Origin: Candidatus Desulfobacula maris
GTDB lineage: Bacteria > Desulfobacterota > Desulfobacteria > Desulfobacterales > Desulfobacteraceae
DNA: 64,000 nucleotides
Reading direction: 5' to 3'
Assembly (NCBI GenBank): GCA_014383445.1
Contig: JACNHV010000358.1
Coordinates: 24,914 to 88,913 of the forward strand
Shown here: positions 10,464 through 25,940 of the stretch, in pieces
How the letters are laid out: every line of letters starts with the position of its first letter
How positions within the stretch are numbered: the stretch's first letter is position 1
Translations under genes and position numbers: made by a program
The notes under the pieces: generated by a model
What the model was told of the DNA's origin: nothing
What the model saw: the letters and a program-made list of their open reading frames with translations, nothing else
Databases searched by the model: none

Positions 10464-10573
10464 TGTATTGCTCCTTATGTTGATTGTTTTTCGGTCTTAC
10501 CCTGCCGCAATTGACAGAGGAGCTATACTGAACCACTGACCTTTTTAAAATTTTAAAACTGCATCCAAAGGCC

Positions 10574-11509
10574 CTACGCCTTTGCGTATGCTTCCAATTC
10601 TGATTCGGATAATTTTGAGAGTGCTGTCTCATATTCTGCACCTTCAAGTTTATCCAAATATTCATACCCGTCATCCGTGTTCTTGTCAGATGCCGGTACA
10701 TCTTTTAATGTTTTGGGGCCTGTACGCTTTCCAGAAGATTTCTTGGCAGCTTTGACTGCCTTCTGGCCGTCTGAATCCTCTTTTTTCATGTTCTCTTTGC
10801 TGTCCTGAATCCCAAAGGCAGCCTTGATGGATTCTTTGGCCTTGGCAAGTATTTCAGGGCCGGCTTTTGATTTCCATTCTTTGATTCCCAGAAGCCGGTT
10901 GACCTCACGGGCAAAGGCATCATAGACAATAGGATTCTGTTTAAGTTTGGCATTATCCTTGTCACTGAAAAATTCTGTCTGTTCAAACTCCCATGTTTTT
11001 TCAGCAGAAATACGGCTTGTTTCTTCCCGGACAATTGCCCGGGTTCGTTCCCTTTCAACTGCAAGCAACTGCTTTTTATAATCATCAAATTCAATGTCAC
11101 CTTCATCCAGCTTTGTATCCAGGGCCTTGATCTTATCTTCGTATTCTTTGTCTACAGACTGCCTGCCGTCATCAGCGGAAGAAGCGTCAGTATCATCTGT
11201 AGCAGTGTCAGTCTTTTTATCCTCTTTGTCGTCGCCCTCTTCATCATCCTTAGTCGCATCGTCTTTAGAATCATCATCAGTGTCGTCATCTTCTGAGTCG
11301 CTTGCAGCATCATCATTTTTGCCATCATCGATGTTGTCTTTGTCATCATCTGAGGATTTGTCATCTTGGTCTTGGGTTCCCTTATTCTCCTCATTATCCT
11401 CATGAACATCATCATTCTGATCATCTGAAGCATCTCCCTCATCATCTTCGATTGCTGCGATTTCTTCTTCAGACAGTCCATCAAAATCGTTGCTGTCGCT
11501 GTCACCCAT
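10574..11509 (-). CDS. Scaffolding protein with an extremely acidic low-complexity N-terminus
   Basis: 311 aa located between the portal and capsid genes. The first ~120 aa are D/E/S/K-rich and the C-terminal half looks helical. Confidence 0.6.
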   Translation of the reverse strand: MGDSDSNDFDGLSEEEIAAIEDDEGDASDDQNDDVHEDNEENKGTQDQDDKSSDDDKDNIDDGKNDDAASDSEDDDTDDDSKDDATKDDEEGDDKEDKKTDTATDDTDASSADDGRQSVDKEYEDKIKALDTKLDEGDIEFDDYKKQLLAVERERTRAIVREETSRISAEKTWEFEQTEFFSDKDNAKLKQNPIVYDAFAREVNRLLGIKEWKSKAGPEILAKAKESIKAAFGIQDSKENMKKEDSDGQKAVKAAKKSSGKRTGPKTLKDVPASDKNTDDGYEYLDKLEGAEYETALSKLSESELEAYAKA

Positions 11510-11511
11510 GA

Positions 11512-13680
11512 TTACTTTGCTCCTTTTTTCTTGTTATCTGATTTAATGCCATGTTCACCTTGTTTAGTGGACATGACCCTGTCTTTTGTCTTGGTTGCTG
11601 CGGGTTTATTTTTCTGATTTAAAGCTTTATTACCGATCTGGATGTCATGCAGGGCCTTGGCCTTGTCAATCCTCAATTTTTCTCGATCAAATTGTACACC
11701 TGCCCTGGTTGCCGCTGCATCTTCAACATTCTTATCAATTTCACTTTCAAGCTTATTCATTTCAAGTCTTTGCATTGTTTCTTCAAACAGGGCCTGGGCT
11801 TCATCCGCCTGTCTTTGTGCATCCTGTTCAGCTTGAAGGTCTGGATCATTCTGATCCGCATCCGGGTCGCTCTGGCCATTAACCATTCTGATTCTGGCTA
11901 CAAGATCTTCCTTGCCCGGGATATCTGACAGATCAACCACCAGATCAAGCAGGTTGATTGCAATTTCAGGGGCCATGTCCTTGATCATTTCCATGAGGGT
12001 TTCAAATGTGGCCTGCCTGATACTGGCTGTCCATGCGGAAGAATCAACTACAAAATCAGCCTGGGCCTTGGTGATATCATTTAAAGGGTTGTTTGTTTCC
12101 GGGTCCACACCATTGATTTCAATGAATTCAGGCTGGTTTTTCTCGTTTGTAATCCTGAATATCTTCTGATCCGTGTAATACTGTTCAATCAAGGACAGGA
12201 CAATTTCACCGAGCATTTGGGTAGAAACTCTTAAATTGTCAAATACTTCTGAATTGACAATATTTCCCTGTTCCTTCCTGGCTTCAATCGCTTTGCCGGA
12301 TATGGCGTTTGTTTCCCGCCCCATCTGTTCATCCGTCACACCACCAACAGCCTCAATATATTCAGCGTCCTGGTTCATCAATGCAACATGCTCTTGAGCC
12401 AGGCCTCTATCGTTGTTGATCTCAATCTCAGACCCTTTTTTCTTTTTTATGATGCCGTCCGGCCGTGACACTTCGTCTGCCAATTCATCCCAATCGGTTA
12501 CGGCATCATCATCAGCAATGACCTGGTTGGTGCTAAGAATGAATAAGGCCTTGCTCCTTCTTTTATTCAGATCGTCCTGGATATCTCTTAGATTACGGAC
12601 CGGGCCGTATTGACTATTGTCTTTCTTTTTCCTGAATCCCCAAATGGGGATAAAGGGAAAACGATTGTGGTTATAAGGTGATTCCTGATCCTGCAAAACC
12701 AGATCCCCGGTAAAGATCATACATCGAATAACCATTCTGATACTGCTTGTCAGTGATGCATATCCGCCTTCTATCAGATCCTTATGTGCCGGGTCATCAG
12801 CATAATATTTCTGCCCTCTGAGCGTGCCAAGGTCTTGGGTACCATTGTCCATGATTTCAATATTTTCAGGTGTTTTATACCAGCATTCAACCAGCTCAAG
12901 CCTGTTTCTCTGAGCTCTGTCGGTACCTTCAAACCCCGTCATTTCTATCATGGATTCAAGGTCTGTATCTTCGTCCGCATATTCTTGGGAATAGGCGCCC
13001 TCATCAATAACAGAACTGTTTGCCAATATTTTTAAAACCCCTGAAAACTCACTGAACATGGAACATGCCACATCCAGATCCACCCGTTTGCGCCTGAACA
13101 TAAACCGGGCATCTTTGAGGTCCAAACGTACGGACAACGGGTCATACCAAATGTTTCGCCAGTCCTCATAATCAATGAATATCGGTTCTTCCATGATATC
13201 TTTTGTGACACCTGCTTCCAGCCATCCCAATCCTGATATGACTGTGTCCTTAAACGCCTGTGACCTCTCAGCCGGTAACTTGTTGACATCTGAAAGATAT
13301 TTTAAGATATGGGTCTTGACCTCGGCAGGTTTGGCATCCTCTGAAGTTCTTGGCAGGACCCGAAAATCTATCCGGTTCTTTTTTTCTGAACCAATGATCC
13401 AGTCGATTGTGGGCTTGACACGATTAAAAACCGTTGCAATCTGACCTCTTGCTTCCACTTCCGCCTTATCATCCGGGTCCCATTGATCACCATCATAAAT
13501 ATCATGGTCTTTGAGGCATTCAGTACGGGCAGGTGCCTGTATAGACCTTGTATATGCCCACCATGCCTTGATTTTGTTCAGCTTTTCCCGCTGTTTTTCT
13601 GTAATCTCAGGAGAGGCCTTTTTCTCATCACCATTCAGGTTGTCAGCAAACATGGCCTGGCTTTCAGATGATTCACTCAT
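11512..13680 (-). CDS. Portal protein
   Basis: 722 aa, directly downstream of the TerL-plus-small-ORF pair and upstream of the scaffold gene. It has a C-terminal coiled-coil and basic tail. Confidence 0.7.
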   Translation of the reverse strand: MSESSESQAMFADNLNGDEKKASPEITEKQREKLNKIKAWWAYTRSIQAPARTECLKDHDIYDGDQWDPDDKAEVEARGQIATVFNRVKPTIDWIIGSEKKNRIDFRVLPRTSEDAKPAEVKTHILKYLSDVNKLPAERSQAFKDTVISGLGWLEAGVTKDIMEEPIFIDYEDWRNIWYDPLSVRLDLKDARFMFRRKRVDLDVACSMFSEFSGVLKILANSSVIDEGAYSQEYADEDTDLESMIEMTGFEGTDRAQRNRLELVECWYKTPENIEIMDNGTQDLGTLRGQKYYADDPAHKDLIEGGYASLTSSIRMVIRCMIFTGDLVLQDQESPYNHNRFPFIPIWGFRKKKDNSQYGPVRNLRDIQDDLNKRRSKALFILSTNQVIADDDAVTDWDELADEVSRPDGIIKKKKGSEIEINNDRGLAQEHVALMNQDAEYIEAVGGVTDEQMGRETNAISGKAIEARKEQGNIVNSEVFDNLRVSTQMLGEIVLSLIEQYYTDQKIFRITNEKNQPEFIEINGVDPETNNPLNDITKAQADFVVDSSAWTASIRQATFETLMEMIKDMAPEIAINLLDLVVDLSDIPGKEDLVARIRMVNGQSDPDADQNDPDLQAEQDAQRQADEAQALFEETMQRLEMNKLESEIDKNVEDAAATRAGVQFDREKLRIDKAKALHDIQIGNKALNQKNKPAATKTKDRVMSTKQGEHGIKSDNKKKGAK

Positions 13681-14042
13681 ATAATCACCTTTTTCATTCC
13701 ATCACCGGAACCACCCCCTGGGGTTGCAGCAGGGGGAAGGAGAGGTTCCGGTGTGGCCGACAATAACTCTTCGATGCCGTCTTCAATAGCCGTGGCAACC
13801 TCGGCCATACGCTGGCTGGTCACAACACCGAGATTGAATTGATAATAGATTAATGAAGTAATGTTATACATCCATTTGGTAAAATTCGGATTCTTATCAG
13901 GGGTGTACATCCATAAATCTTCCATCCTGATACAAAAATTTGCAGTGTGCCCTTCCCTTGGAAATTTTGGGCATATAAGCAACACGGGCTCGGGCTCATC
14001 ATCAATCGTCCGATATGCTATTCTTCTAATTACTTCAGCCAT
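13677..14042 (-). CDS. Small phage protein between terminase and portal
   Basis: 121-aa ORF that overlaps both neighbours (1 nt and 4 nt). Confidence 0.5.
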   Translation of the reverse strand: MAEVIRRIAYRTIDDEPEPVLLICPKFPREGHTANFCIRMEDLWMYTPDKNPNFTKWMYNITSLIYYQFNLGVVTSQRMAEVATAIEDGIEELLSATPEPLLPPAATPGGGSGDGMKKVII

Positions 14043-15568
14043 TATGCGGCCATCCCTGAGCGTTTCCGCCTTTTTGTCCTGGTTTTTACAATCTGCACAG
14101 GCTCAGCAAAGGTCAGTGCAAGGCCATCCCCTTCATCCGGGGATCTGCCAATCCTTTTTTTGATATCTTCTTTGGGCTCAAGCTGCTTCTGGGTTGTGCT
14201 GGTATATTTGTACCCAGGGGCCGTGAGATCTGCCTGAAGGGTATCAACGTCCGGGATCTGTACTTCTTCATCTGACTCAAGCCATTTCCTGACCTCGTCC
14301 CACATTTCTGCACGGCGGTTTTTATAATGCTCCGGGTCCATGGCCTTGCTGCCGAAATTAACAAGGGTCACTCTATTTCCAAAGCCCATTTCAACCAGCC
14401 GGTCATACATGCCAGATCCGCCGCCCCGGTCAATGAACATCCTGTCAACGGGTTCATTCTCAAGGATCATCCGGGCCTGACCGGCCTTGGCCATATCATC
14501 CAGTTTGTGGTGGGATTCTATATTCCAGGCTCTACGACCCTGCCGTCTGATAAATGTGGTCGCATCGTCGCCTTCACGGGCAGGATCACAGCCAACGACA
14601 TAAGCACCATATTTGGGAACACCCATTGTTTTTCTGGCCGTCAATACTGATTCAGCAGATATCAAGGAATTGATACCCGTTGTCTGGAAAGCTTCCGCCG
14701 CATTCCCGGGATACTCCTGCTTGAAAAGAAGAGGGTCACCCAGTTCAACTATTTTGAGCCGTCTCCAATAAATCTGTTCATCATCCAGCTTGTAGGCCTT
14801 TTGATATGCTGCTTCTTCAATGGTCGGAATAAATTTTTCATCACTCGGAATGGGCTTTCTGTATTCTGATTGCCAGTACCAGGGAATAAAGATTGCAATG
14901 TAGTCGCTCTTACCCTTCTCCGCATCCTGCCACATTCTATGAAACATATTCCCCAGGCCATTGGCCGTGGATTCAAGGATGATCTCTTCAGCCATTTCAG
15001 CAGCCTGAAAGACACCTGTTTTGATCTCGTCAGTATTTTCCCAGAAAGCGACCTCAGATCCATGGAAAAAGTCTATTGTATCAGATCTTCCCACGTTCTT
15101 TGATCCAGCCGTACCCAGGCCATATGCTGAATCAAGCTTATCAAATACCAGCTCTTTCCGGTTTGAAAAGGAAGTGGATGGCTTTATCAATGGGTTGCAA
15201 TGTTCGTGGTAACGCTGCACCATCTTGAAAAGATTAGTGGTGGCATCGTCCATGTGGGCAAGGATAAAGGTTTTGACACCATTTTTGTGCGTGGTCTGGT
15301 GATAGAATCGACCGCCCACGTATGTGCTGCACCCCTGTTGACGTCCCTTGAGAAGCAGGGCTCTTATTTTCCCTGTTTTTTTCTTCTGTTCTTCCAGTCG
15401 ATCATGTAGGTACCTCTGGGCCTTGTTGAAAACAAACGGAACAATCTTCTGCATCCGCCCATCAACCAATATGGGCTTTTTGGTCCTGATCTTGAGACAC
15501 CGCTCTGCATAATGCGGTAAATCCTTCTTCGCCCGCCGCCTTGCGTTCATTTCTCTATCAGAAACCAT
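14042..15568 (-). CDS. terL: Terminase large subunit
   Basis: 508 aa. Contains an LLLKGRQQGCSTYV Walker-A-like terminase motif. The gene lies next to the small subunit gene with a 1-nt overlap. Confidence 0.8.
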   Translation of the reverse strand: MVSDREMNARRRAKKDLPHYAERCLKIRTKKPILVDGRMQKIVPFVFNKAQRYLHDRLEEQKKKTGKIRALLLKGRQQGCSTYVGGRFYHQTTHKNGVKTFILAHMDDATTNLFKMVQRYHEHCNPLIKPSTSFSNRKELVFDKLDSAYGLGTAGSKNVGRSDTIDFFHGSEVAFWENTDEIKTGVFQAAEMAEEIILESTANGLGNMFHRMWQDAEKGKSDYIAIFIPWYWQSEYRKPIPSDEKFIPTIEEAAYQKAYKLDDEQIYWRRLKIVELGDPLLFKQEYPGNAAEAFQTTGINSLISAESVLTARKTMGVPKYGAYVVGCDPAREGDDATTFIRRQGRRAWNIESHHKLDDMAKAGQARMILENEPVDRMFIDRGGGSGMYDRLVEMGFGNRVTLVNFGSKAMDPEHYKNRRAEMWDEVRKWLESDEEVQIPDVDTLQADLTAPGYKYTSTTQKQLEPKEDIKKRIGRSPDEGDGLALTFAEPVQIVKTRTKRRKRSGMAA

Positions 15569-16047
15569 TATTCCAAGGCCTCTAAAAGTTCTTCGTGTGA
15601 AAGAGTAACATTCAGATCACCATCAAGATTTTTTGTGTCCGGCCATCGTTCCCGGTTCCTATTGCGAAGCCAAAATTGTTGAGCTTTAACATCGCCGGCC
15701 ATATGTTTTTTAATCTTTTTTGTTATTTCCATCTCCCCGTCTTCGTCCAGCTCTTTGATAGTTTCTTCATAACTGTAGCCCAGGGCTCTTTTTAGCAGGG
15801 AGGTTTCAACGTTCTCCGTGTCATATGTATCTTTCCCGGCCTTGATGGCAGCCAGGAACTCAGGATGGTCTTTTTTCCAATTGTTAATCAGACTCTTTGA
15901 AACCCTGAAAAGATTGGCCAGCTTGAGATCGGTAAACCCGTTCTCACAAGCCACCTGGGCCATGGAAACAAATTCCGGATCATAAATAACCTTAGTGCCT
16001 GTCTTATTAAGCCTTACCGGTTTCTGGTTCTTTTGTTTTCCCATCAA
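15568..16047 (-). CDS. terS: Terminase small subunit (HTH)
   Basis: 159 aa. The N-terminal HTH-like segment (GFTDLKLANLFRVSKSLINNWKKDHPEF) is typical of TerS proteins. The gene lies immediately upstream of TerL. Confidence 0.7.
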   Translation of the reverse strand: MMGKQKNQKPVRLNKTGTKVIYDPEFVSMAQVACENGFTDLKLANLFRVSKSLINNWKKDHPEFLAAIKAGKDTYDTENVETSLLKRALGYSYEETIKELDEDGEMEITKKIKKHMAGDVKAQQFWLRNRNRERWPDTKNLDGDLNVTLSHEELLEALE

Positions 16048-16463
16048 CCCCTCCTGTCCGGACCATCATGATAATGATCATTTTCGGCTGCCGGTTCCCC
16101 TAATCCATCAAGCTTTCTGCGGCCATATAACAGCATGTCATGCTTTGCGATGTCGACTGCGTATTTGTCGGTCCGAAGATAGAGTATTTTAAGATGGTCT
16201 GATGTATTCTGCTTGTCGGCAAAGCGATCGAACAGCGTATCCCGGCAATTCTGATGTGCCTGGACAATACTCGACTGTGCTGCTAAAATTTCTTCCAGCT
16301 GCTTTTTTAAAAACCAGCCCAGGACGGATACCATTGCACCCAGACAAAGGAACCCAACACCCATAAAAACAGTATTGGTATCAAGCGGAGCTGGTATTGC
16401 TGTCGTAACAACTGGAGAGCTGGCCTCGGCTGCGGCAAGGAATGGAATATCAAGAATGGTCAT
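16044..16463 (-). CDS. Membrane protein, holin/spanin-like (lysis cassette candidate)
   Basis: 139 aa with one clear hydrophobic span (VFMGVGFLCLGAMVSVLGWFL). It overlaps both neighbours. Confidence 0.45.
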   Translation of the reverse strand: MTILDIPFLAAAEASSPVVTTAIPAPLDTNTVFMGVGFLCLGAMVSVLGWFLKKQLEEILAAQSSIVQAHQNCRDTLFDRFADKQNTSDHLKILYLRTDKYAVDIAKHDMLLYGRRKLDGLGEPAAENDHYHDGPDRRG

Positions 16464-16860
16464 CGCCGAAATCCTCTGTAATTTTTATTGTAAAATGATC
16501 AACATCTGCCAGGGCAGCCATGAACCGCTTAACAGCTTTGCGGGAACTCAGTACTGCCCTGTCTCCATTCAGCCACCCGGTATGATCCCCTATCAATATG
16601 CAACCGGATGTGTCTTTAGCCGTGTTTCCTGCATGGAAAAGGATATGATCCCGGTCAGGAACTGATATTTCAAAGGTTTCACCAAATTTGGGGGATGTGG
16701 TGCGACGGCAAAGGTAGGTAGCAGGTGGGATGCAAGATATAAAACGCTGGTTTTCAAGATCTGGATTTTCAAGCGTGGAGTACGCTTCAAGGTCATCTAT
16801 TTGTAAAGATCCGATGATACATTTGTCAGTCTTTTCAAGCCTTCTCAACTCAATAATCAA
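16450..16860 (-). CDS. DUF5675-like phage protein (possible cell-wall-active enzyme); first gene of the late operon
   Basis: 136 aa with a TTG start preceded by GAGGGG. Motifs such as FISCIPPATY...FHAGNTAKDTSGCILIG resemble the DUF5675 family as I recall it. Confidence 0.5.
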   Translation of the reverse strand: MIIELRRLEKTDKCIIGSLQIDDLEAYSTLENPDLENQRFISCIPPATYLCRRTTSPKFGETFEISVPDRDHILFHAGNTAKDTSGCILIGDHTGWLNGDRAVLSSRKAVKRFMAALADVDHFTIKITEDFGDDHS

Positions 16861-16952
16861 AGCAAAAATCCCCTCATTTCCATGTCGGAGTCCAAAGTTT
16901 GTTCGTTGGGGCTTATTGTTTCAGGAGAAAATGGGGATTACAATTGAATCCA

Positions 16953-16976
16953 TGCGTGAAAATTGCATTTCACGCA
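16953..16976. promoter_or_regulatory. Perfect 9-bp inverted repeat (TGCGTGAAA-N6-TTTCACGCA) upstream of the late operon
   Basis: Read directly from the sequence. Its centre is ~104 nt upstream of the 16860 start codon. It is adjacent to a second near-palindrome, GGATTACAATTGAATCC, at 16935-16951. Confidence 0.4.
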
Positions 16977-17412
16977 CGAAAATTTGAGATAGGTTTATAT
17001 ATTGGTACTTTATTCACTATAATCTTTAAGAATATCTTTTGATAGCTGTTGCGGTCCATAAAATTGAATTAAAAACTAATGCTGAAAAAGATTCATATAC
17101 CATATGTGGGGTTATCCAGAGTTTCTGTGGGGTGAGCCCTTCGATTGTCAGTAACTGCTTTTAAATTTTAATTCAAACCCTTTATAATGCTTTTTGTTAA
17201 CAACTCGACAGGAGAGGAGTGCGGACAATTGTTGTAATTTGACCGCTGAAATTGAAATTTTTGAATTTAACGACGTTGAAACCTATAAGTAACATCATGG
17301 TCGTGCAAAAATTTTGCTACCGACCCGGGTCAAATCAGCCGTTTTCTACAGGAACTAATTAAATATTTTTTTATATTTTTGAATGGTGAGGAGGTCATCT
17401 TCCTATTATAGA

Positions 17413-20400
17413 CTACTTCATAATACTCTCTTGAATTGTTTCTCTAAATTCTTTAAAAAAAAATTTTTCCGATAGATCATATAATTGTTTAATAATTAGA
17501 AATGAATTTTTTTCCCTAATATTCTCGCTTAAGTTTGATTTTAAAATTAGATTAATAGCAACTTTTTTAAAACAAGATTGGTATCTTTGTATTCTCTCCC
17601 AATAGTTTTCTATCAATAATTTATTGCTTTGTGAGTTTAATGATAAAACAAACTCCCAATCTGAAAATATATTTTCGAGATGATTGTGAATTCCGAAATC
17701 TATTACCTCATTGGCTTGATCGTATGTCTCTGCTTTTTGCATAAGCTTATTATACAAACTAACATCCAGAATAAAATGTTTTGGGATTGAATCGAAGACT
17801 TCTTTGGCTTGATCGTATGTCTCTGCTTTTTGCATAAGACTATTATACAAAGCAGCATCCAGAATAAAATGTTCTGGGATTAAATCGAAGACTTCTTTGG
17901 CTTGATCGTATGTCTCTGCTTTTTGCATAAGACTATTATACAAAGCAGCATCCAGAATAAAATGTTCTGGGATTAAATCGAAGACTTCTTTGGCTTGGTC
18001 GTATATCTCTGCTTTTTGCATAAGAAAATAATACAAAGCAGCATCCAGAATTAAATGTTTTGGGGTTAAATCGAGAACTTTCTTGGCTTGATCGTATGTC
18101 TCTGCTTTTTTCATAAAGGTATAATACAAGCCAACATCCAGAATAAAATGTTTTGGGATTAAATCGAGAACTTTCTCGGCTTGATCAAATTTCTTTGCTT
18201 GTTCCATAAGACAATAATACAAACCAACATCCAGAATAAAATGTTTTGGGATTAAGTTGAGAACTTTCTCGGCTTGATCGTATTCCTTTGCTTTTTCCAT
18301 TAAGATTTTAAAAAAGTGAGCATCACTTACTATTCTTTTTGGGATTAAATTGAGAACTTTCTCGGCTTGATCGTATGTCTCTGTTTTTTTCATAAGATTA
18401 GCATACAAACCAACATCAAGCATTACATCTTCTGGGATTGAATCGAAGATCGCCTTGGCCTGATCGAATGTCTCTGTTTTAGATAAAAAATTAGAATAAT
18501 GCTTTGAAGAAAGTTTGATTTGATTCTGCACAAAGAGATTTAAGATATAAAGTATACTAATATCCTTTTTTTGCATGAGTATAACTAAAATCCAATTTAG
18601 AGCTTGGTCAAAATCAAACAACGAAGTTCGAGTTTCAATCATTTGCTTTATAAACTTAATTACTGCTATCTTGTTTACTGTTTTCTTAATAATTTCTCCA
18701 AAAATCGATACCGATAGAATCTCTTCTTTTTTTGCCCTATTAAACCATTTTAAGACGTCTTCATAATTTATTGCTTTTCGCATTAATAACACGTAAGTTT
18801 CCGAATTTGGCTTAATGCCATTTTTACACATTTTTTCGAATAATCGTAAGGCAGCTTTATAATCAGAGCAATTTTTTATAGAATCATTATAAAAATCTGG
18901 CTTTACGTAGAAACCACGTAAATGTTGCTCTGGTTTGTTATATAACTTATTTATGTCGGCAATAATTTCATAGGGCTTATATTGTACAATTTTATCCAGA
19001 TAGACTTCCTCAACTTCAACGAGATTATTTTTTTTAATTATAAAATTTAAATTAAAATTATCAGTTTCTATTCTTTGTAATGCTGCATCTGCATTGTCCG
19101 TGAAAAATTGAATTTTTCCTTCTTCTGTTATTTTTAGAGCTTCCAACATTTTAGCTTGCATGAGATTGCCTTCATAACCACCAGGGCGAGCATGTTTTCC
19201 TATATGTATCCCCAAACAAAATTCTTTTAACTTATATATTTCAAAAGTTCTTTTTGAATGGAAATTTGATGAATAATTTAATGCTTTCAATGATTTTAGA
19301 AGGTTTATAGCTATTTTATCAACATCATCCTTACTATCTTTCAAATTCTCATATCTTTCTCTCATTAAATTTATGGGCAAAATCAATGACCCAATATTCC
19401 CATCATATTCCGGATCGTTTTCGTCAGAGTTTAAATATAAAACGACTTCCTTAAACTCATCGTCTGAAAGGGTTGGTATTTCTAAATTCTTAAATACATC
19501 CTTAACTCCTGTTGTTGAGTTATGATAGAACTGCTTAAATTCTGGTCCATTTTTGCAGGTAGCAAGAATTTTACATCCGTTTAGAATTAGTTCCTCAATA
19601 AAAATGTTTGCGGCTTTGGCTTTAGATTCTATAAAATATTGATCTATATCATCCAAGACTACAACTACTGAGGGAAATTTTTTTTTTATGTGGCTTAATG
19701 AATTGGGATTAAGATTTCCCGGTTCCGGTATTAGTATTAATATTGATGGATCTTCTGAACTTTTTTTTTGTAAAAGCTGATATATCGCTCTTGTCTTACC
19801 CGCAAGTGCTTTACCCTTTAAAAGTATATTATGTGATCGAAATGTTTCAAATATAACATCGTCTATCTTTCGATGAAAATAATAATCGCGATACTTCTTG
19901 GCACGTATTCCAAATATGTCTTTTGGTTCAATAGTATCAATTTTTTTAAAAATTTTAAAAGCATTTGAAATTGTAAGTTCATCTATCTGAATTTCACTTG
20001 TTTTTTTTTGAGTCTTTTTAGTTTCATCATGTATTTCCAGCTTGTCTCGTGCTAATTCATGAAATTCTCTTTGTAAAATGACAACACCCTTCTTATAGCT
20101 TTTAAAACTCTCATTATAAAAAAATGGAGAAAAAATTTTTTCAGGCTCGTATCGATTTAAAAAATCTGCCCTGTTTTTATTATAGGAGCGAATTGCTTTT
20201 TGACCAAGCCTATATACACTGTGTGGCCATTCAATTTCTGCCTCCTTACATTTTTCTTTAAAAAAATCTTTTATCCTATCCCTGCTTAAGTTGATCAAAT
20301 TTTCATTTTTTATAACTTCGTTGAAAAATAAATCGAACTTTCTATGTAGCTCAGAATCAGTTTCTTCCATCCCTCCGCCTTCGGCGGTTCTGTCAAAATT

Positions 20401-21225
20401 TTGGATTGAAGATAGGTTTTGCCCTCCCGCCCTAGAAAGATCGGACGGGGTAATGTTTTCTCCATCACAAAAAATAACCAAACGCTGAATTGTATTTTCA
20501 AGTTCTCGCACATTTCCTGTCCATTCATAATTGCACAATATCCCCACCGCTTCTGGAGAAATACCTTTTACTTTGGTTGCTATTGATACATCTTGAATAT
20601 TTTTATCGATAAAGTGTTTTATTAATAAAGGGATATCATCTTTCCGTTCATTTAAGGAGGGGAGCCTGATCCTTACACCGTTTACTCGATAGAACAGGTC
20701 TTCTCTAAACGTCCCATTTTTCACCTCGCTTTCAAGCTTTTTATTTGTTGCAGAGATAAGCCTGAAGTCGACGGGAATTAATTTTGTCCCACCAACCCGT
20801 TTGATGGTTCTCTCCTGTAAAACTCTAAGAAGCTTAACTTGAAGAGGGATCGTCAGTTCACCGATCTCATCGATAAAAAGGGTCCCCTTATCCGCTATTT
20901 CAAAAGGTCCTTTTCTCATGGATTCTGCACCGGTAAAAGCACCTTTTTCATGTCCGAACAGTTCGCTTTCCAGCAGACTCTCAGCAAATTCTGAACAATT
21001 AACCGGAATCATTTGTAAATTTTTTCTGAGGCTGTTGAAATGAATGGATTCGGCTGCGAGTTCTTTTCCAGTGCCGCTTTCTCCTTCTATCAGCACATTG
21101 GCATTGGTAGGAGCAACTTTTTTTATTATTTCATATACTTCCTGCATTGATTCGCTTTTACCGATCATCTTTTGAAAATTAAAATTTTCAGAAAAATTTC
21201 CCATATCGATCTCCAATGCTAACAA
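17413..21225 (-). CDS. Sigma54-interacting AAA+ activator module fused to a STAND-like P-loop NTPase and PPR/TPR-like repeats (1270 aa)
   Basis: Activator module: aa 48-55 GESGTGKE, aa 95-100 GAFTGA (nt 20926-20943), aa 116-123 LFIDEIGE, aa 237-244 GNVRELEN. Second NTPase: P-loop GKALAGKT (aa 471-478, nt 19792-19815) and VVVVLDDID (aa 520-528). About nine 31-aa helical repeats span aa ~908-1177. No Fis-type HTH is visible. Confidence 0.8.
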   Translation of the reverse strand: MLALEIDMGNFSENFNFQKMIGKSESMQEVYEIIKKVAPTNANVLIEGESGTGKELAAESIHFNSLRKNLQMIPVNCSEFAESLLESELFGHEKGAFTGAESMRKGPFEIADKGTLFIDEIGELTIPLQVKLLRVLQERTIKRVGGTKLIPVDFRLISATNKKLESEVKNGTFREDLFYRVNGVRIRLPSLNERKDDIPLLIKHFIDKNIQDVSIATKVKGISPEAVGILCNYEWTGNVRELENTIQRLVIFCDGENITPSDLSRAGGQNLSSIQNFDRTAEGGGMEETDSELHRKFDLFFNEVIKNENLINLSRDRIKDFFKEKCKEAEIEWPHSVYRLGQKAIRSYNKNRADFLNRYEPEKIFSPFFYNESFKSYKKGVVILQREFHELARDKLEIHDETKKTQKKTSEIQIDELTISNAFKIFKKIDTIEPKDIFGIRAKKYRDYYFHRKIDDVIFETFRSHNILLKGKALAGKTRAIYQLLQKKSSEDPSILILIPEPGNLNPNSLSHIKKKFPSVVVVLDDIDQYFIESKAKAANIFIEELILNGCKILATCKNGPEFKQFYHNSTTGVKDVFKNLEIPTLSDDEFKEVVLYLNSDENDPEYDGNIGSLILPINLMRERYENLKDSKDDVDKIAINLLKSLKALNYSSNFHSKRTFEIYKLKEFCLGIHIGKHARPGGYEGNLMQAKMLEALKITEEGKIQFFTDNADAALQRIETDNFNLNFIIKKNNLVEVEEVYLDKIVQYKPYEIIADINKLYNKPEQHLRGFYVKPDFYNDSIKNCSDYKAALRLFEKMCKNGIKPNSETYVLLMRKAINYEDVLKWFNRAKKEEILSVSIFGEIIKKTVNKIAVIKFIKQMIETRTSLFDFDQALNWILVILMQKKDISILYILNLFVQNQIKLSSKHYSNFLSKTETFDQAKAIFDSIPEDVMLDVGLYANLMKKTETYDQAEKVLNLIPKRIVSDAHFFKILMEKAKEYDQAEKVLNLIPKHFILDVGLYYCLMEQAKKFDQAEKVLDLIPKHFILDVGLYYTFMKKAETYDQAKKVLDLTPKHLILDAALYYFLMQKAEIYDQAKEVFDLIPEHFILDAALYNSLMQKAETYDQAKEVFDLIPEHFILDAALYNSLMQKAETYDQAKEVFDSIPKHFILDVSLYNKLMQKAETYDQANEVIDFGIHNHLENIFSDWEFVLSLNSQSNKLLIENYWERIQRYQSCFKKVAINLILKSNLSENIREKNSFLIIKQLYDLSEKFFFKEFRETIQESIMK
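17695..18504 (-). repeat. Intragenic 93-bp (31-aa) tandem repeat array, ~9 units; the last three are near-identical
   Basis: The GGCTTGATCGTATGTCTCTGC motif recurs at 93-nt spacing (for example 17806 and 17899). The protein unit is ALYNSLMQKAETYDQAKEVFDLIPEHFILDA. Confidence 0.85.
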
Positions 21226-21450
21226 TACAAATCACAACAAAGGTTAAAAACACAGTATCAAAATAAATTTAAAATCAGAACAAAAATGGTCTCAGACTAT
21301 TATCAATCTCAATATAGTTATCACAGTTATTCATCAAATCTCAATATTAATTATGAAAAATATAGCTGGACATTCTTTCCAAATTTGGATATTAGTCAAT
21401 TTTTTAACAGACCATTATAATCACATCTTTCATTTCGCAAGAAAGAATAT

Positions 21451-21480
21451 CTTACAGTAACCTACAGTAATCTACAGTAA
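21451..21480. repeat. Three tandem 10-bp direct repeats (YYTACAGTAA)
   Basis: cttacagtaa cctacagtaa tctacagtaa lies in the divergent intergenic region, ~226 nt upstream of the 1270-aa gene start. Confidence 0.7.
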
Positions 21481-21561
21481 TTGGTTTTAAAGTTTTTAGG
21501 TATTTTTCTTATCCATAATTAAATATAATAAAATCAATAATTTAAATATAATAATGCATCT

Positions 21562-21577
21562 TGGCATGCTACTTGAA
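21562..21577 (+). promoter_or_regulatory. Candidate sigma54 (-24/-12) promoter, TGGCATG-N4-TTGAA
   Basis: GG-to-(G)C spacing is correct against TGGCACG-N4-TTGCW. There are two mismatches, including the conserved -12 C (GA instead of GC). It faces away from the activator gene, toward the small ORF and the GNAT gene. Confidence 0.3.
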
Positions 21578-21645
21578 ATAAATCATTTCCAACACCCCAG
21601 AAAAGGAAAGGGGAAAACAAAAACTTCAGATAAGGAGAAGAAAAA

Positions 21646-21735
21646 ATGTCAAACGAAAAGAAGAAGTATGAGATTCATTATGATCGTAAAGGTACGAGAA
21701 CTGGTCACTCACGGAAGAGTAATTCCACCAAATAA
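21646..21735 (+). CDS. Candidate 29-aa basic micro-ORF (MSNEKKKYEIHYDRKGTRTGHSRKSNSTK)
   Basis: My own translation. A strong AAGGAGAAG RBS ends ~6 nt before the ATG. The stop is followed 9 nt later by an 11-bp GC-rich hairpin. Confidence 0.3.
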   Translation: MSNEKKKYEIHYDRKGTRTGHSRKSNSTK

Positions 21736-21744
21736 CATCTAACT

Positions 21745-21770
21745 GCTGCCACCGCATTTGCGGTGGCAGC
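21745..21770 (+). other. Perfect 11-bp GC-rich hairpin (GCTGCCACCGC-ATTT-GCGGTGGCAGC)
   Basis: Read directly from the sequence. It stands out in AT-rich surroundings. There is no U-tract on either strand, so it is not a canonical intrinsic terminator. Confidence 0.5.
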
Positions 21771-21856
21771 AATTGCTCTGACTGAAGGAGATCTTTATTC
21801 ATTATGGCCATTGGACACGGATACGACTTATTTTAACCAATTTCCAGAAATAATAT

Positions 21857-21865
21857 GGGGGGGGG
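21857..21865. repeat. G9 homopolymer tract
   Basis: Nine consecutive G residues, 3 nt before an ATG at 21869, in otherwise AT-rich DNA. Confidence 0.9.
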
Positions 21866-21955
21866 AATATGACTAAATTTTGTGAAAATAGTTCTATAAA
21901 TCAAATTTTTTATGGCCGTTCACCCATTCATCGTGTGGAGCGAATTTCTTTGTAT

Positions 21956-22100
21956 CATCACCGTTTTGATCATCACCGTTTTGATCATCACCGTTTTGAT
22001 CATCACCGTTTTGATCATCACCGTTTTGATCATCACCGTTTTGATCATCACCGTTTTGATCATCACCGTTTTGATCTCAATCCTTTTGATCCTTTTGATC
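21956..22100. repeat. Eight perfect 15-bp tandem repeats (CATCACCGTTTTGAT) plus two degenerate CCTTTTGAT units
   Basis: Units start at 21956 and then every 15 nt up to 22061. There are 10 GATC sites within 21968-22100. The array ends ~85 nt upstream of the GNAT start. Confidence 0.95.
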
Positions 22101-22183
22101 AATTAATTCCCTTTTAACGTGCTTTTTACTTAAAACTGAACAAAACCTAATATTAACCAAGCAATAATAAGGAGAGCCAAAAA

Positions 22184-22906
22184 ATGGCATTCATATATAA
22201 GAATAAGGTCCGTGAGCATCATAGGAAGATTAAATCCTTAACTGAAAATATAGAAGATCCCATCGTAAATGCGTGTTTAGCTGATTTGAATAATAAATCC
22301 ATGAAATCAGACAAAAACATCGTCAAACCGCCATCATTAACCGGTAGAGATTTTGTTCTGTCACCTTTAAAAGAGGAACATGTCAAATACTTGTGGAGTT
22401 GGGAAAATGATATTACTGAATCCAATCTTTGGGCTCCAACAAGAGGCCTTTATTCCGAATTGGAGTTTCACAGCCTTATAATGGATAGAATTGAAAATTT
22501 CTATCATGAGATTTTCATAATATTAAAACCCGATGGCACCCCGGTGGGTACGGTCTATAGTTACAAAAAAAGCATGCTCAATGGATTTGCATATTTTGCT
22601 GTCTATATTGTTCCGTGGTTTCGGAAAAAGCTAATTGGAACAAATGCATGCATTATGTTTATACACTATTTGTTTTCATTTTTCCCTTTCCGTAGAATTT
22701 TATCCAAAGTTTTAGAGTATAATCATAACAGCTTTTCTTGTATAAAAAATGCAGGGTTTCAAATTGAGGGAAAACTAAAAGACCATGTTTACTATAATGG
22801 TGGGTATCATACGATGATTCTTTTAGCTATTTTTCGGGAAGACTTCTACAGTACATTTGGTAGTATGATAAACCAAATTGTAAAACGGCACGGTATTTCA
22901 CCTTAA
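22184..22906 (+). CDS. GNAT family N-acetyltransferase (RimJ/RimL-like) with a ~55-aa N-terminal extension
   Basis: 240 aa, preceded by an AAGGAGAG RBS. The core pattern (FVLSPL...HEIFIILKPDGTPVGTVYSY...NSFSCIKNAGFQIEGKLKDHVYYNGGYH) is typical of Acetyltransf_3-type GNATs. Confidence 0.7.
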   Translation: MAFIYKNKVREHHRKIKSLTENIEDPIVNACLADLNNKSMKSDKNIVKPPSLTGRDFVLSPLKEEHVKYLWSWENDITESNLWAPTRGLYSELEFHSLIMDRIENFYHEIFIILKPDGTPVGTVYSYKKSMLNGFAYFAVYIVPWFRKKLIGTNACIMFIHYLFSFFPFRRILSKVLEYNHNSFSCIKNAGFQIEGKLKDHVYYNGGYHTMILLAIFREDFYSTFGSMINQIVKRHGISP

Positions 22907-23051
22907 ATCCGGCCAAAAATCCCAATTTGGAGTGCCTAAGAGAGAAAAAGCAAGGTAAGGGAAAATGATAAATTTAATTAACAAATTAAACCTTCAGCTT
23001 TGCTGATGGTCCAAGCTTTGCTTAGCGGGTAAGATATAGATTTACAAAAAT

Positions 23052-23109
23052 AGAATACCTCCTTAAAAAAGGCTTTGTGGAGACCCTAAAGTTCAAAAGG
23101 AGGTATTCT
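23052..23109 (+). promoter_or_regulatory. 13-bp perfect inverted repeat (AGAATACCTCCTT ... AAGGAGGTATTCT, 32-nt loop); the distal arm is a consensus SD
   Basis: Read directly from the sequence, in the convergent intergenic region. The AAGGAGGT arm lies 5 nt upstream of an in-frame TTG (23110) of ORF 23077-23343. Confidence 0.4.
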
Positions 23110-23256
23110 TTGAAACAGTTTAAAAAATTAGCACATGCGGTATGGGGACCAACACATCTGGTATTGACAATATTTTTGTTTCAGATTCAAAATTTCATTA
23201 TATGGGAGAGGCTAAAATTAAATTTTCCTTTACAGCATATTGGAGAACAAACAACC

Positions 23257-23550
23257 TTATGGAGTAGCCCGGACCTCCTCATGCAAATAAGTCTTTTTGC
23301 ATCCATTAGGGCAGACCAAATCAACTACCCTGTATGCCTGTGAATGCTTTCTTGATCGCTTCCTGACCAGCCTGGCTCTGCATTTCTGACAGAACTTGTC
23401 CGGCATTTCATAAGGATCTTTAAACCGCTTAGGTCCATCCCCAGGTAGGCATTTTGCAGGATCACAAAAACTGGTTCTATAATCAGCGCACTCCCCGCAA
23501 TTCTTGACCATTAACACCTCTTCGTTATGACCACATCCAAGTTCCAACAC
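23257..23550 (-). CDS. Cys-rich zinc-finger-like small protein (candidate late-gene regulator, by position)
   Basis: 97 aa with several CxxC pairs (CGEC, CQKC, CPNGC). It is the last gene of the early operon, downstream of RusA, which is the slot used by Q/Ogr-type regulators. Confidence 0.4.
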   Translation of the reverse strand: MLELGCGHNEEVLMVKNCGECADYRTSFCDPAKCLPGDGPKRFKDPYEMPDKFCQKCRARLVRKRSRKHSQAYRVVDLVCPNGCKKTYLHEEVRATP

Positions 23551-23558
23551 AGCATTGA

Positions 23559-24056
23559 TCAGATTCTTCTTCTCAGCAATAATACTCTTTTTGAGGGATT
23601 TAGGTTATCTTTTTCCTGCATCCAACATTCGTCAGGTTTCTTGACTGTCACTTCCGTTCTGGGCTCTTCACCAGGCCCACAGTAGATCTTTTCTGAAACC
23701 TCATAAATCACCTGGGAATCATCTTTCCAGACTGAGCCATTGAAAATATCAAATAAAAACTTCACAAGATTATCAGTGTCAGGTTTTTTGATATGATATT
23801 TTGAGACAGATGACTTGAGTATCCCTTCATTCCTGCCGGTTCCAAAATGTGACTTAGGCCGTGGCATGAAAAATTTAGTATCCACAAGCACAGCATCTTT
23901 AAACAATTTATGGCCATTGGTTTGCTGTTTAACATGCCAAAGTATTAATCCTTCTTCGGTTTCCTGATCGCTGTAAGTGGTTGTACCCTTTCCACGGCGG
24001 GCAAAGCGGGGTCTATGCTTTGCAATTGGAATTCCGGGTATGATTATTTTTAACAC
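23559..24056 (-). CDS. rusA: RusA-family Holliday junction resolvase
   Basis: 165 aa. Contains PRPRFARRG near the N-terminus and the KKPDTDNLVKFLFDIFNGSVWKDDSQV motif. Confidence 0.8.
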   Translation of the reverse strand: MLKIIIPGIPIAKHRPRFARRGKGTTTYSDQETEEGLILWHVKQQTNGHKLFKDAVLVDTKFFMPRPKSHFGTGRNEGILKSSVSKYHIKKPDTDNLVKFLFDIFNGSVWKDDSQVIYEVSEKIYCGPGEEPRTEVTVKKPDECWMQEKDNLNPSKRVLLLRRRI

Positions 24057-24065
24057 CCTGCCTCC

Positions 24066-25235
24066 TCAAAATTTATCAAAAAGCCCATGTGTTAAATTAC
24101 TGAGCTCGCCTGGTTTAAGATTTTTCATTTCCTGATGGATCTTGATTGCATCAGCCTCGTTAAAGTTTCCATTTTCTCTTCTCATGATTGCATTTACAAA
24201 ACCCCATGGTTTTTCAATGGGGAATTGGGATTTAAGTATTCCGTTTAAGGATTCAAGGATGGCTCCTGGATGTCCCCTGTTGTTGATCTGGGATTGAACA
24301 AACTTGTATGAGTTAAAACCATCAAGGTTTGATTTTGCTATTTTTTCACACACGGCTTTAATCTCTTTGAAATAATTCCCTGTTTTTTCCCGAAAATGAT
24401 TTGATTTTTTTTTATCGGCCAGCGGGCCACCGCTGACATTTGTCAAACTAGATTTATCAGGAGAGGGAGAAGGACTAGGAGAGGGAGAAGGGCAGACGTT
24501 TGAGCAGGCATTCGCAGGCATTTGGCAGGCGTTCGATAGCCATTTAGCAGGCATTTTTAATCCATTTTTTTCACACCAATCAATTCGAAAGTCTATATTT
24601 TCAGGGCCTTTGCCTGAGTTGCAGCGAGCACATAAGGGTTGCAAATTATCAATGCCGTCACTGCCACCTTGATAAATTGGGATGATATGATCTTTTACAA
24701 CACCATGAAGATTAGAGTCACCACCGCACCTCACACAAGTATCATTAAAAAAAGAAAACATTTCCTCCCACTCAACTTTTGAATGTCTTCCTTTTTTTCT
24801 GGCGTCAGATAATCTTTGAGCCCGTGTTTTTTTATCTCTTTCTGCTGTTGTTTCATTATCGTTTGTCCCCCATTTAGCTCTTGCAGCTTTTTTGGCTTTC
24901 TCTGACCTTTCATCAGCATGGAAAGCATATTCATTGTGGTCCTGCCAATCATGAATTAAAAATCCATCATCAGACTTTTCTAAAAATCTTATTTTGGGAT
25001 CTAAAAGAATTTTTACAAATAGCCCGGGTTCTCCAGTCCAATCCGATGCTATTTCAATATCATCCTCATCATACCCGGAAAGAACGCCATTTGGCTTGTT
25101 TGCAGAAACAAAAGCCCAAAGTCTTATTAAATTATAAAAAGCCCTATCACCAAGCTTTCTCATTAATTTTAAAGTCTTTGGATGTGTCGGAAGTGTTACG
25201 CTCACTCTAAAATCTTTGTTCATTTTTTTTCCCAA
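24066..25235 (-). CDS. Replisome-organiser-like protein with an embedded HNH nuclease domain
   Basis: 389 aa. The N-terminus resembles a phage replication organiser. The HNH core is CVRCGG...DHIIPIYQGGSDGIDNLQPLCARCNSGKG. A (PS)5 linker (nt ~24461-24494) precedes the C-terminal domain. Confidence 0.6.
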   Translation of the reverse strand: MGKKMNKDFRVSVTLPTHPKTLKLMRKLGDRAFYNLIRLWAFVSANKPNGVLSGYDEDDIEIASDWTGEPGLFVKILLDPKIRFLEKSDDGFLIHDWQDHNEYAFHADERSEKAKKAARAKWGTNDNETTAERDKKTRAQRLSDARKKGRHSKVEWEEMFSFFNDTCVRCGGDSNLHGVVKDHIIPIYQGGSDGIDNLQPLCARCNSGKGPENIDFRIDWCEKNGLKMPAKWLSNACQMPANACSNVCPSPSPSPSPSPDKSSLTNVSGGPLADKKKSNHFREKTGNYFKEIKAVCEKIAKSNLDGFNSYKFVQSQINNRGHPGAILESLNGILKSQFPIEKPWGFVNAIMRRENGNFNEADAIKIHQEMKNLKPGELSNLTHGLFDKF

Positions 25236-25241
25236 AAAAGA

Positions 25242-25940
25242 TTATATGTAAACAGGCCTTCCCGTCAGCTTTTGTATTTCTATTTTAAAGGATTCGGGAT
25301 CTGAATTATTTGCGCTCATGTGTATCAGGTGGATTTCATCACATTTGGACAGGTCATTTGCCCTGAAAAATTCCTTCACGTTTTCAAGCTCAAAATGACT
25401 CTTTAGAATCCTGTTTCTGATGGCTTCCGGGACAATGCCGGATTTAATATTTTTTTCCAGAATTTCCTTGGAATAATTGCATTCAACCATGTAATAATTA
25501 ACCCCGGGAAAACGATACCTGCAATAGAACGAATCAGTAATAAATATGAGCTTCTTGCCATTTTTACCTTGCAGTAAGTACCCGTATGGTTCAGCACAAT
25601 CATGTTGAGCATTAAAAGGTAAAATCTTAAAGGTTCCAACCGTGAATACTTCCTTTGGTCTCACGGTTTTTAAACGATGTCCGGATAGCTTTAATGCCCT
25701 GGCTGTTCCAGGGCTCATATAACAGTCAATTCCCGCCTTCATGACATCTTTTATGGCCTTGGAATGGTCCCCATGCTCGTGGCTGCATAGGCAGCCTGAT
25801 ACTTCAGAAAGCTTAAAATCAAACGCCTCACGAATCTGACGGAAACGGATACCGGCTTCAATCATAATGATGGTTTCACCATCAGATATCCGATAACAAT
25901 TCCCGGCAGACCCGGAGGCTATTGTTGCGATGTCGATCAA
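25242..25940 (-). CDS. MBL-fold metallo-hydrolase (recombination-associated nuclease candidate)
   Basis: 232 aa with an SHEHGDH motif. The gene abuts recT with no gap. Confidence 0.7.
   Translation of the reverse strand: MIDIATIASGSAGNCYRISDGETIIMIEAGIRFRQIREAFDFKLSEVSGCLCSHEHGDHSKAIKDVMKAGIDCYMSPGTARALKLSGHRLKTVRPKEVFTVGTFKILPFNAQHDCAEPYGYLLQGKNGKKLIFITDSFYCRYRFPGVNYYMVECNYSKEILEKNIKSGIVPEAIRNRILKSHFELENVKEFFRANDLSKCDEIHLIHMSANNSDPESFKIEIQKLTGRPVYI

Follow-up and report, generated by a model that had tools for sequence, protein, structure and literature searches.

A prophage cargo gene of Candidatus Desulfobacula maris predicted to join a sigma-54 activator ATPase to a STAND-like NTPase and pentatricopeptide-type repeats

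We analysed a 64,000-nucleotide stretch of DNA from the marine sulfate reducer Candidatus Desulfobacula maris (GenBank assembly GCA_014383445.1, contig JACNHV010000358.1, positions 24,914 to 88,913 of the forward strand), hereafter the window, to whose first letter all coordinates refer. Part of the window is a prophage, and on its minus strand lies a single long gene, here called the fusion gene, whose product appears to combine a sigma-54 activator ATPase, a second NTPase and helical repeats in one chain. A first-pass annotation, made from the letters of the window, had described it as a protein of 1270 amino acids (aa). The open reading frame (ORF) behind that description is there, running mechanically and without interruption from 17413 to 21225 on the minus strand and comprising 1270 codons when counted from a TTG at 21225, but the length probably needs correction. 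An ATG at 21204, with GGAG ahead of it at the right distance, is the likely start codon and gives 1263 aa, which is also the length of GenBank entry MBC8442013.1 (Candidatus Desulfobacula maris). That entry is the exact sequence and is annotated as a 'sigma 54-interacting transcriptional regulator', a label that conceals four fifths of the protein. Residue numbers throughout count the ATG at 21204 as aa 1. The gene and the parts of its product are laid out as follows.

17413..21204, minus strand: coding sequence of the fusion gene, from the ATG at 21204 to a stop codon at 17413-17415; 1263 aa
20428..21168, minus strand: sigma-54-interaction AAA+ module with its lid, aa 13-259 (Pfam, ZraR alignment, AlphaFold2, motifs)
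19969..20427, minus strand: linker of ~150 aa, aa 260-412, predicted helical at low confidence, with no helix-turn-helix (HTH)
18925..19968, minus strand: second P-loop NTPase, STAND-like, aa 413-760 (conserved motifs, AlphaFold2, Foldseek)
18508..18924, minus strand: one canonical pentatricopeptide repeat (PPR), then degenerate PPR-like helical repeats, aa 761-899 (Pfam PPR_2, family profile)
17671..18507, minus strand: nine tandem 31-aa PPR-derived repeats, aa 900-1178 (93-bp DNA array)
17416..17670, minus strand: 85-aa C-terminal tail, no domain recognised (domain searches)

The N-terminal ~260 aa had been read by the first-pass annotation as a complete ATPase of the bacterial enhancer-binding protein (bEBP) type, and this reading held. 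Pfam assigned aa 13-179 to Sigma54_activat (E 5e-68) and aa 186-259 to AAA_lid_14 (E 1e-23), and among solved structures in the PDB the module matched the AAA+ domain of ZraR at E 3e-76, the motifs of the two falling in register; identity to that domain, judged by eye from the alignment, is ~55% over 246 aligned residues. Walker A, GAFTGA, Walker B, sensor I, arginine fingers and sensor II are all intact, and a FREDLFYR motif can be read as well. Each of the motifs quoted earlier was located (GESGTGKE at aa 41-48, GAFTGA at aa 88-93, LFIDEIGE at aa 109-116 and GNVRELEN at aa 230-237). In the AlphaFold2 model of the AAA+ core, block-mean confidence (pLDDT) was mostly 82-96, with a single block at 69. 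The 64-kb window holds no second bEBP gene.

Typical bEBPs carry this motor between a regulatory domain and a DNA-binding domain (DBD), both of which had been reported as missing, and we likewise detected neither. Pfam found no receiver, GAF or PAS domain in the 1263-aa protein and no match to HTH_8 at E <= 1. NCBIfam models for bEBPs (NifA, NtrC, PspF, RtcR and others) aligned to aa ~5-270 only and all scored under their curated cut-offs, the NifA model reaching 341 bits against 528.85. PADLOC matched the fusion protein with RtcR/PspF models only, over the AAA+ core. We also built a custom hidden Markov model from the C-terminal regions of 102 bEBPs and ran it with all HMMER filters off. It matched neither the linker nor the full protein, its best score being -2.6 bits on an unrelated segment. 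A known bEBP sensor family or a cryptic HTH was thus absent from the C-terminal 1000 aa by these searches: the bEBP matches from Pfam, NCBIfam and PADLOC were confined to the AAA+ core, and the HTH profile returned nothing. As far as sequence methods reach, the fusion protein is DBD-less. One candidate relic of a Fis-type HTH, NLINLSRDRIKDFFKEK (aa ~305-320), was rejected; it had been raised by a likeness by eye to 'LLGISRxTLxxKLKK' and by its MAFFT placement, and there the HTH profile was negative and pLDDT was 28-63. The same pLDDT range, 28-63, describes the whole linker (aa 260-412). Within it, aa 269-360 had no homolog in the exhaustive HMMER search set out below, whose matches begin at query position ~91. 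By domain and Walker A positions, the linker measures ~150 aa as against ~65 aa in relatives that bear a TIR domain.

Beyond the linker lies the second P-loop NTPase. Its quoted motifs were all located (Walker A GKALAGKT at aa 464-471, Walker B VVVVLDDID at aa 513-521 and ILATCK at aa 546-551), together with ATCKNGPE, DGNIGS and MRERY. Across an alignment of 64 relatives G469 is invariant, and K470 and D519 are each conserved in at least 90%. The earlier proposal that this region folds as an NTPase agrees with the AlphaFold2 model (43-sequence alignment), which has a mean pLDDT of 90.1 and a pTM of 0.79 and is laid out as an alpha/beta core, a helical bundle and then a helical region with a beta-hairpin. 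When this model was compared with the PDB by Foldseek, the top match was EfAvs5, a SIR2-STAND protein (chain 9jap_A, E 4e-7), and the next were ORC/Cdc6, Clp/Hsp104, RFC and the apoptosome proteins Dark and CED-4. From predicted viral structures, Foldseek retrieved generic clamp-loader and AAA+ folds only. Taken from the model, the fold evidence would support the designation 'AAA+/STAND-type NTPase' for the central domain, and not more.

Most of the remaining length is made of repeats. The first-pass annotation had counted about nine 31-aa PPR-like units, and nine are present at aa 900-1178; ahead of them, a canonical PPR within about aa 771-809 exceeds the Pfam PPR_2 cut-off (32.0 bits against 30). 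In the DNA, Tandem Repeats Finder reported 93 bp x 8.3 copies at 17711-18480. A profile built family-wide matched designer and plant PPR proteins in the PDB with E down to 1e-159, and the sensors of the family are best regarded as true PPRs, the 31-aa units being a version four residues shorter. Variation among the units is concentrated at unit positions 5-6 and also at position 2. Position 6 is the most variable, with seven residue types in 8 units (units 2-9), and 7 of the same 8 end in Asp, at the equivalent of PPR position 35. By our own eye alignment, unit position 6 corresponds to PPR position 5, which is suggestive only. PPR proteins read single-stranded RNA via positions 5 and 35, position 5 being the main nucleotide-specifying residue, and PPR-like solenoids may bind proteins too. 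Sister prophage copies that are otherwise 99% identical encode one repeat unit more (1294 aa versus 1263 aa). Because these copies differ by exactly one 93-bp unit, the sensor region gains and loses units in frame over a short timescale.

Base composition changes inside the gene: G+C is 39% where the bEBP module is encoded and drops to 30% where the NTPase is, which points to a chimeric origin. One explanation would be a recent recombination accident that joined a bEBP fragment to a STAND-PPR gene and has no selected function. It would be in keeping with the G+C step, with the restriction of the fusion to a singleton lineage and with a linker that lacks homologs and is poorly modelled. We nevertheless regard it as very improbable, on three grounds. 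The frame stays open across 3.8 kb of A+T-rich DNA, the 150-codon linker included, and an open frame of that length in DNA of 30-39% G+C cannot be chance. The catalytic and sigma-54-contact motifs of both ATPases are all intact. Finally, the ORF is intact in four records that come from different assemblies and are 97-98% identical, with repeats gained or lost in frame. These 97-98% identical copies, all of one prophage lineage, are the only full-length relatives.

A homolog search with the full-length protein was dominated by ordinary bEBPs, and was redone without the bEBP part. Eight proteins came from a word-seeded search with aa 269-1263. An exhaustive HMMER search with aa 269-940 against 1.84 billion representatives yielded 361 at E <= 1e-3, of which 177 reach E <= 1e-10 and 30 reach E <= 1e-30. 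The first-pass annotation could not place the architecture in any described family. For the fusion, which occurs only here, that judgement stands; the scaffold, however, belongs to a sizeable, uncharacterised family, that of the 361 representatives. Family matches start ~50 residues ahead of Walker A, and the sequence that precedes them differs from protein to protein. Among 31 non-redundant N-termini there were SIR2_2 (5), TIR_2 (3), Trypsin_2 (2), SMEK_N (2) and EAD1 (2), and single occurrences of PRTase-CE, Schlafen AlbA_2, EAD11, Metallophos, CHAT, DUF4062 and HTH_3. PADLOC, run on the relatives, matched their N-termini with ThsA, ThsB, Dsr, LmuA and retron-PRTase models and left the NTPase and sensor parts unmatched. 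Such exchangeable N-termini are characteristic of induced-proximity effectors and mark the N-terminal position as an effector slot, and a sigma-54 activator appears in that slot only in this prophage lineage. That a sigma-54 motor occupies the effector slot of a STAND-type sensor carried as phage cargo is, on these comparisons, well supported.

The relatives that bear names belong to Bacteroidota (Saprospiraceae, Microscillaceae and one with no finer label than Bacteroidota), and the gene neighbourhoods of relatives fit conflict-system contexts. The closest relative is located among PIN-toxin genes, and a TIR relative adjoins an AAA_15/AAA_21 ATPase and a Schlafen/HATPase_c_4 gene. One EAD11 relative (3639-6677 of its contig) has a 1085-aa caspase-family protein directly upstream (204-3461), and another (8001-11024 of its contig) has a second EAD11 protein (EAD11 + Lcl_C, 56-1123) 7 kb upstream; partners of this kind would fit adaptor-mediated recruitment of effectors. 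The first-pass annotation had asked whether homologs might be ordinary chromosomal regulators. They are not, having interchangeable SIR2, TIR, trypsin, CHAT, PRTase, Schlafen and EAD N-termini and caspase, PIN-toxin and AAA_15/Schlafen genes as neighbours. Searches among phages gave no further members: tblastn with aa 269-1263 against 50,697 GenBank phage records had no match, and an IMG/VR pattern scan for the NTPase family found no relative.

The fusion gene had further been said to sit in a phage cargo slot, and its surroundings agree, with phage modules on both flanks, an integrase, low G+C and an insert that is swapped in related phages. The prophage reaches from the integrase (31366-32559) back to the window start or beyond it, and host genes, among them those for indolepyruvate oxidoreductase and DsrMK, follow from 33480 on. 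No tRNA was found at the prophage end in the window. To one side of the fusion gene lie genes for a P22-type portal, capsid and the large and small terminase, and to the other those for RusA, HNH and RecT; its flanking genes are those for RusA (23559-24056) and for a DUF5675 protein, beyond which comes the small terminase. G+C is 30-37% over 17001-23000 versus ~45% on the structural-gene (left) side and ~40% on the RusA (right) side. IMG/VR phages whose large terminase is 91-94% identical are collinear with the prophage over 9118-17000 and 23238-25939, and phages ~90% identical in DNA hold a different insert of ~4 kb in the same slot, without the fusion gene. Because collinear relatives carry another insert between 17000 and 23238, this interval is a replaceable 6.2-kb low-GC cargo island, which contains the fusion gene together with divergent small ORFs and a SpeG-like GNAT gene.

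17000..23238, no strand: cargo (moron) island (G+C dip, replaced in related phages)

In the related phage IMG/VR UViG_3300024339_001388, positions 4561-8549 hold a 383-aa ORF, a 308-aa ORF and a 127-aa CheY-like receiver (the receiver recognised by eye). The 308-aa ORF bears a likeness to Clp/SppA-type serine proteases, seen by eye in the translation. The slot is a cargo hot-spot, often with signalling-type genes. At the island boundary, upstream of the DUF5675 and terminase genes, is an inverted repeat, CGTGCGTGAAATGCAATTTTCACGCATG (16950-16985, minus strand), possibly an operator of the phage backbone or one of its late-promoter elements. Rfam found nothing over 16800-23600.

The location of the gene bears on a second alternative, namely that its product regulates the phage life cycle, coupling a host or environmental signal to sigma-54 control of late genes or of the lysis-lysogeny decision, and serves neither defence nor conversion. 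The fusion gene occupies the place, between RusA and the small terminase, that late regulators have in lambdoid phages, and it shares the strand of the structural genes; the CheY-like receiver in the same slot of related phages suggests that signalling cargo is common there. The upstream region of the late operon (16860-17412), however, has no sigma-54-like site, and the G+C of the fusion gene is foreign to the phage backbone. Phages ~90% identical in DNA lack the gene and carry other cargo, which marks it as dispensable for the life cycle, and relatives of its product bear death or defence effectors. We consider a life-cycle role quite unlikely.

On the far side of its start codon, the fusion gene faces a divergent segment of the island in which the following features were identified.

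21562..21577, plus strand: candidate sigma-54 promoter TGGCATGCTACTTGAA, with the right -24/-12 spacing and one mismatch
21646..21735, plus strand: hypothetical ORF of 29 codons, ribosome-binding site AAGGAG, ~60 nt downstream of TGGCATGCTACTTGAA
21741..21774, no strand: G+C-rich palindromic hairpin with a 15-bp stem, which scores as a minus-strand terminator
21869..22117, plus strand: 82-codon ORF encoding (HHRFD)x8, on a 15-bp tandem array
22184..22906, plus strand: GNAT acetyltransferase gene, divergent from the fusion gene, product distantly SpeG-like

When the 64-kb window was scanned for the sigma-54 consensus TGGCAYG-N4-TTGCW with up to one mismatch allowed, TGGCATGCTACTTGAA was the only site returned. 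Its mismatch is at -12, where an A replaces the conserved C. Transcription is predicted to start near 21587, and the site is directed away from the fusion gene, toward the small ORFs and the GNAT gene. For the 958-bp spacer between the fusion and GNAT genes (32% G+C), 0.002-0.004 such sites are expected per strand. As a target promoter of the fusion protein, TGGCATGCTACTTGAA is a candidate, nothing more. Other sigma-54 sites in the prophage were discarded as chance-level and mostly inside genes, and only that at 21562-21577 was kept, as a candidate. Among the host genes, a GG-N10-GC site, CGGAACAACCTTTGCA (52343-52358, minus strand), is intergenic and upstream of the gene for pyruvate carboxylase subunit B (50154-52175); it is a possible sigma-54 promoter of the host, but the match is weak.

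The 29-codon ORF was not called by the gene caller in sister contigs. The hairpin at 21741-21774 would keep early transcription of the phage from running into the fusion gene. Just upstream of the GNAT gene, 21949-22076 is taken up by a perfect tandem array of 15-bp units, TTTGATCATCACCGT x 8.5; in sister contigs the (HHRFD) ORF was called as a 67-aa gene, and the 99%-identical sister prophages have ~three more 15-bp units. This array could encode a His-rich peptide, provide a set of binding sites or form a contingency locus. The GNAT protein matches the spermidine N1-acetyltransferase SpeG in the PDB at around E 1e-10, has an extra N-terminal extension of ~55 residues, and is a possible regulated output.

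What such a protein might do is constrained by the behaviour of its parts. STAND proteins pass from closed monomer to oligomer on ligand, and their N-terminal domains are activated by induced proximity, as in the EfAvs5 filament. The bEBPs are controlled at the step of ring assembly, and sigma-54 promoters are silent without an activator. DBD-less bEBPs occur naturally, and the truncated activator DctD250 is constitutive and activates sigma-54 promoters from solution without an enhancer (PMC3844500). We propose, with a probability of about one half, that the fusion protein is a prophage NLR/Avs-like STAND sensor whose output is a DBD-less sigma-54 activator ATPase, switched by ligand-driven oligomerisation.

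At rest, the protein would be a closed monomer, with its N-terminal AAA+ domains at too low a concentration for a ring to form. A ligand, which may be an RNA or protein of an incoming phage or else a stress signal, would bind the PPR-derived solenoid and free the central NTPase for nucleotide exchange and oligomerisation. The oligomer would gather the AAA+ domains on flexible tethers of ~150 aa into a hexameric ring, the long linker letting this ring form irrespective of the symmetry of the NTPase assembly. The ring would touch sigma-54 via GAFTGA and, by ATP hydrolysis, turn closed promoter complexes into open ones. Lacking a DBD, it would work from solution on any sigma-54 promoter encountered; its targets would be host sigma-54 promoters and plausibly the site at 21562-21577 before the small ORFs and GNAT gene of the island. 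The benefit to the prophage would be superinfection defence or lysogenic conversion, kept silent until the trigger arrives. It is from the architecture that we infer sensor-triggered sigma-54 transcription serving immunity or lysogenic conversion.

Several observations weigh against this proposal, beginning with the identity of the central domain. Foldseek TM-scores were low (0.39), with the generic AAA+ proteins ORC, Clp and RFC scoring nearly equal to Avs5, and Pfam nSTAND_NTPase5 reached 14.7 bits against a cut-off of 34. PADLOC models for Avs1-5 matched the NTPase/sensor part of neither the fusion protein nor eight relatives. Membership in Avs1-5, an idea prompted by the EfAvs5 fold match, was rejected, none of the PADLOC Avs models giving a match. 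The bEBP motifs occur in 0 of the 150 best family representatives, which leaves the fusion a singleton lineage without comparative support. The proposed coupling also carries assumptions: bEBP rings are hexameric as against STAND assemblies that range from tetramers to filaments, compatibility being assumed via the long linker, and host rpoN lies outside the 64-kb window, its presence being taken from what is known of Desulfobacterota. As for targets, the single site in the window compares with 1.85 expected by chance and lacks the conserved -12 C, and a GG-N10-GC plus weighted consensus scan of the prophage produced no other convincing sigma-54 promoter.

The arrangement of the island admits a bolder version of the proposal, which we hold to be doubtful. 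The locus may be a self-contained phage-carried immune module that would 'sense, transcribe, act': the NLR-like receptor would read a nucleic-acid or protein signature by a PPR-code-like surface and, in place of direct killing, would assemble the activator ring, which would fire the otherwise wholly silent sigma-54 promoter of the module's own small ORFs and GNAT gene. If true, this would be a bacterial counterpart of the NLR transcription activators CIITA and NLRC5, and the first sigma-54-gated anti-phage output.

A further alternative has the AAA+ module itself as a toxic effector and not as a specific activator. Once triggered, the DBD-less ring would fire or jam all sigma-54 holoenzyme, or burn ATP, so that growth stops and the infection aborts, and the GNAT gene would be unrelated cargo. 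The other effectors in the family are all destructive (NADases, proteases, nucleases), Desulfobacterota are rich in bEBPs and sigma-54 promoters, and the local promoter candidate is imperfect. DBD-less bEBP domains are, moreover, promiscuous (PMC3844500). Salmonella expressing the promiscuous DctD250, however, reached mid-log phase and was used for regulon mapping, so that global activation was no bar to growth there (PMC3844500). The GNAT and fusion genes also share one island, divergent around the best sigma-54 match of the window. We think a toxic role unlikely.

Were the proposed sensor-driven mechanism true, sigma-54 transcription activation would join the outputs of prokaryotic NLR-like receptors, which to our knowledge have until now been NADases, nucleases, proteases and pore-formers. 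Signal detection may here be wired straight to gene activation, with a motor standing where a killing enzyme normally sits. Because sigma-54 promoters are silent until the ligand assembles the activator, the arrangement would offer near-leak-free licensing of dangerous genes, with relevance for phage-host biology and for synthetic ligand-gated gene switches. The design is unexpected and mechanistically clean, and is known from one prophage lineage, from sequence alone. The wider family, with several hundred representatives that combine a STAND-type NTPase, true PPR repeats and defence-type effectors, raises the question of whether bacteria sense invaders with a surface of the PPR type, which in eukaryotic organelles reads RNA.

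Among known systems, the fusion protein shares its three-part layout, an N-terminal output, a central P-loop NTPase and a C-terminal helical-repeat sensor, with Avs1-5 and bNACHT. The closest is Avs5 (SIR2-nSTAND-repeat): EfAvs5 is the best match of the NTPase model among solved structures, and some relatives of the fusion protein have SIR2 N-termini. One Avs5 homolog, PaAvs5-3, is on record as bearing PPR repeats (PMC12931631), and a 2026 survey of STAND clades documents STAND defence genes on prophages. The fusion protein differs from Avs proteins in having a transcription motor as its output, and not a NADase, nuclease or protease, and in the unusual length (~150 aa) of the linker that joins this output to the NTPase; the PADLOC Avs models leave its NTPase and sensor parts unmatched, and its Pfam nSTAND hits stay under the threshold.

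With bEBPs such as NtrC, ZraR, PspF and NifA, and with DctD250, the fusion protein has in common a full AAA+ core with GAFTGA, and control of ring assembly is to be expected in it too. It departs from typical bEBPs in lacking both the N-terminal regulatory domain and the HTH and in being phage cargo, and its regulatory input would come from the C-terminal STAND-PPR module of 1000 aa. RtcR (CARF-bEBP-HTH) is likewise an immunity-related sensor that drives a bEBP motor with transcription as its output; its CARF sensor is N-terminal, and it keeps a DBD and a target operon, rtcBA, whereas the fusion protein has a C-terminal STAND-PPR sensor and no DBD.

Four giant cellular regulators (1177-2126 aa), which emerged from the full-length homolog search, also join helical repeats to a bEBP. 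Two of them contain Pkinase, an AAA_16/NACHT-like ATPase, TPR_MalT, GAF and Sigma54_activat, with HTH_8 in one of these; in the other two, only the part with TPR, GAF, sigma-54 AAA+ and HTH_8 was seen. In them a STAND-like switch is coupled to a bEBP in a separate way that seems not to have been described. They resemble the fusion protein in that one polypeptide unites a STAND-like ATPase with helical repeats and an output in transcription; unlike in it, the order is opposite, with the bEBP C-terminal behind GAF, an HTH is present, the genes are chromosomal and effectors are not swapped. The STAND transcription factors MalT, AfsR and GutR similarly hold a STAND ATPase, repeats and a transcription output in one chain, but MalT and AfsR act via DBDs and sigma-70-type polymerase, not via a sigma-54 motor. 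STAND transcription regulators are cited in the 2026 survey.

The effector-associated domain (EAD) conflict systems provide a further point of contact, since relatives of the fusion protein carry EAD1 or EAD11 N-termini like those treated by Kaur, Burroughs, Iyer and Aravind (2020, 2021). In the main texts of those two papers, an ECF-sigma-like HTH is a rare transcriptional occupant of the effector slot, and a search of the main texts by term found neither a sigma-54 activator in that slot nor a PPR sensor. A term search of the main text and two supplement files of the 2026 STAND-clade survey similarly found no sigma-54 activator in the effector slot, and our Pfam, NCBIfam, PADLOC and full-text literature searches turned up no defence-type STAND protein with a sigma-54 motor in its N-terminal slot. 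The parts, and the STAND logic of exchangeable effectors, are known already; what appears to be new is the sigma-54 motor in the N-terminal effector slot.

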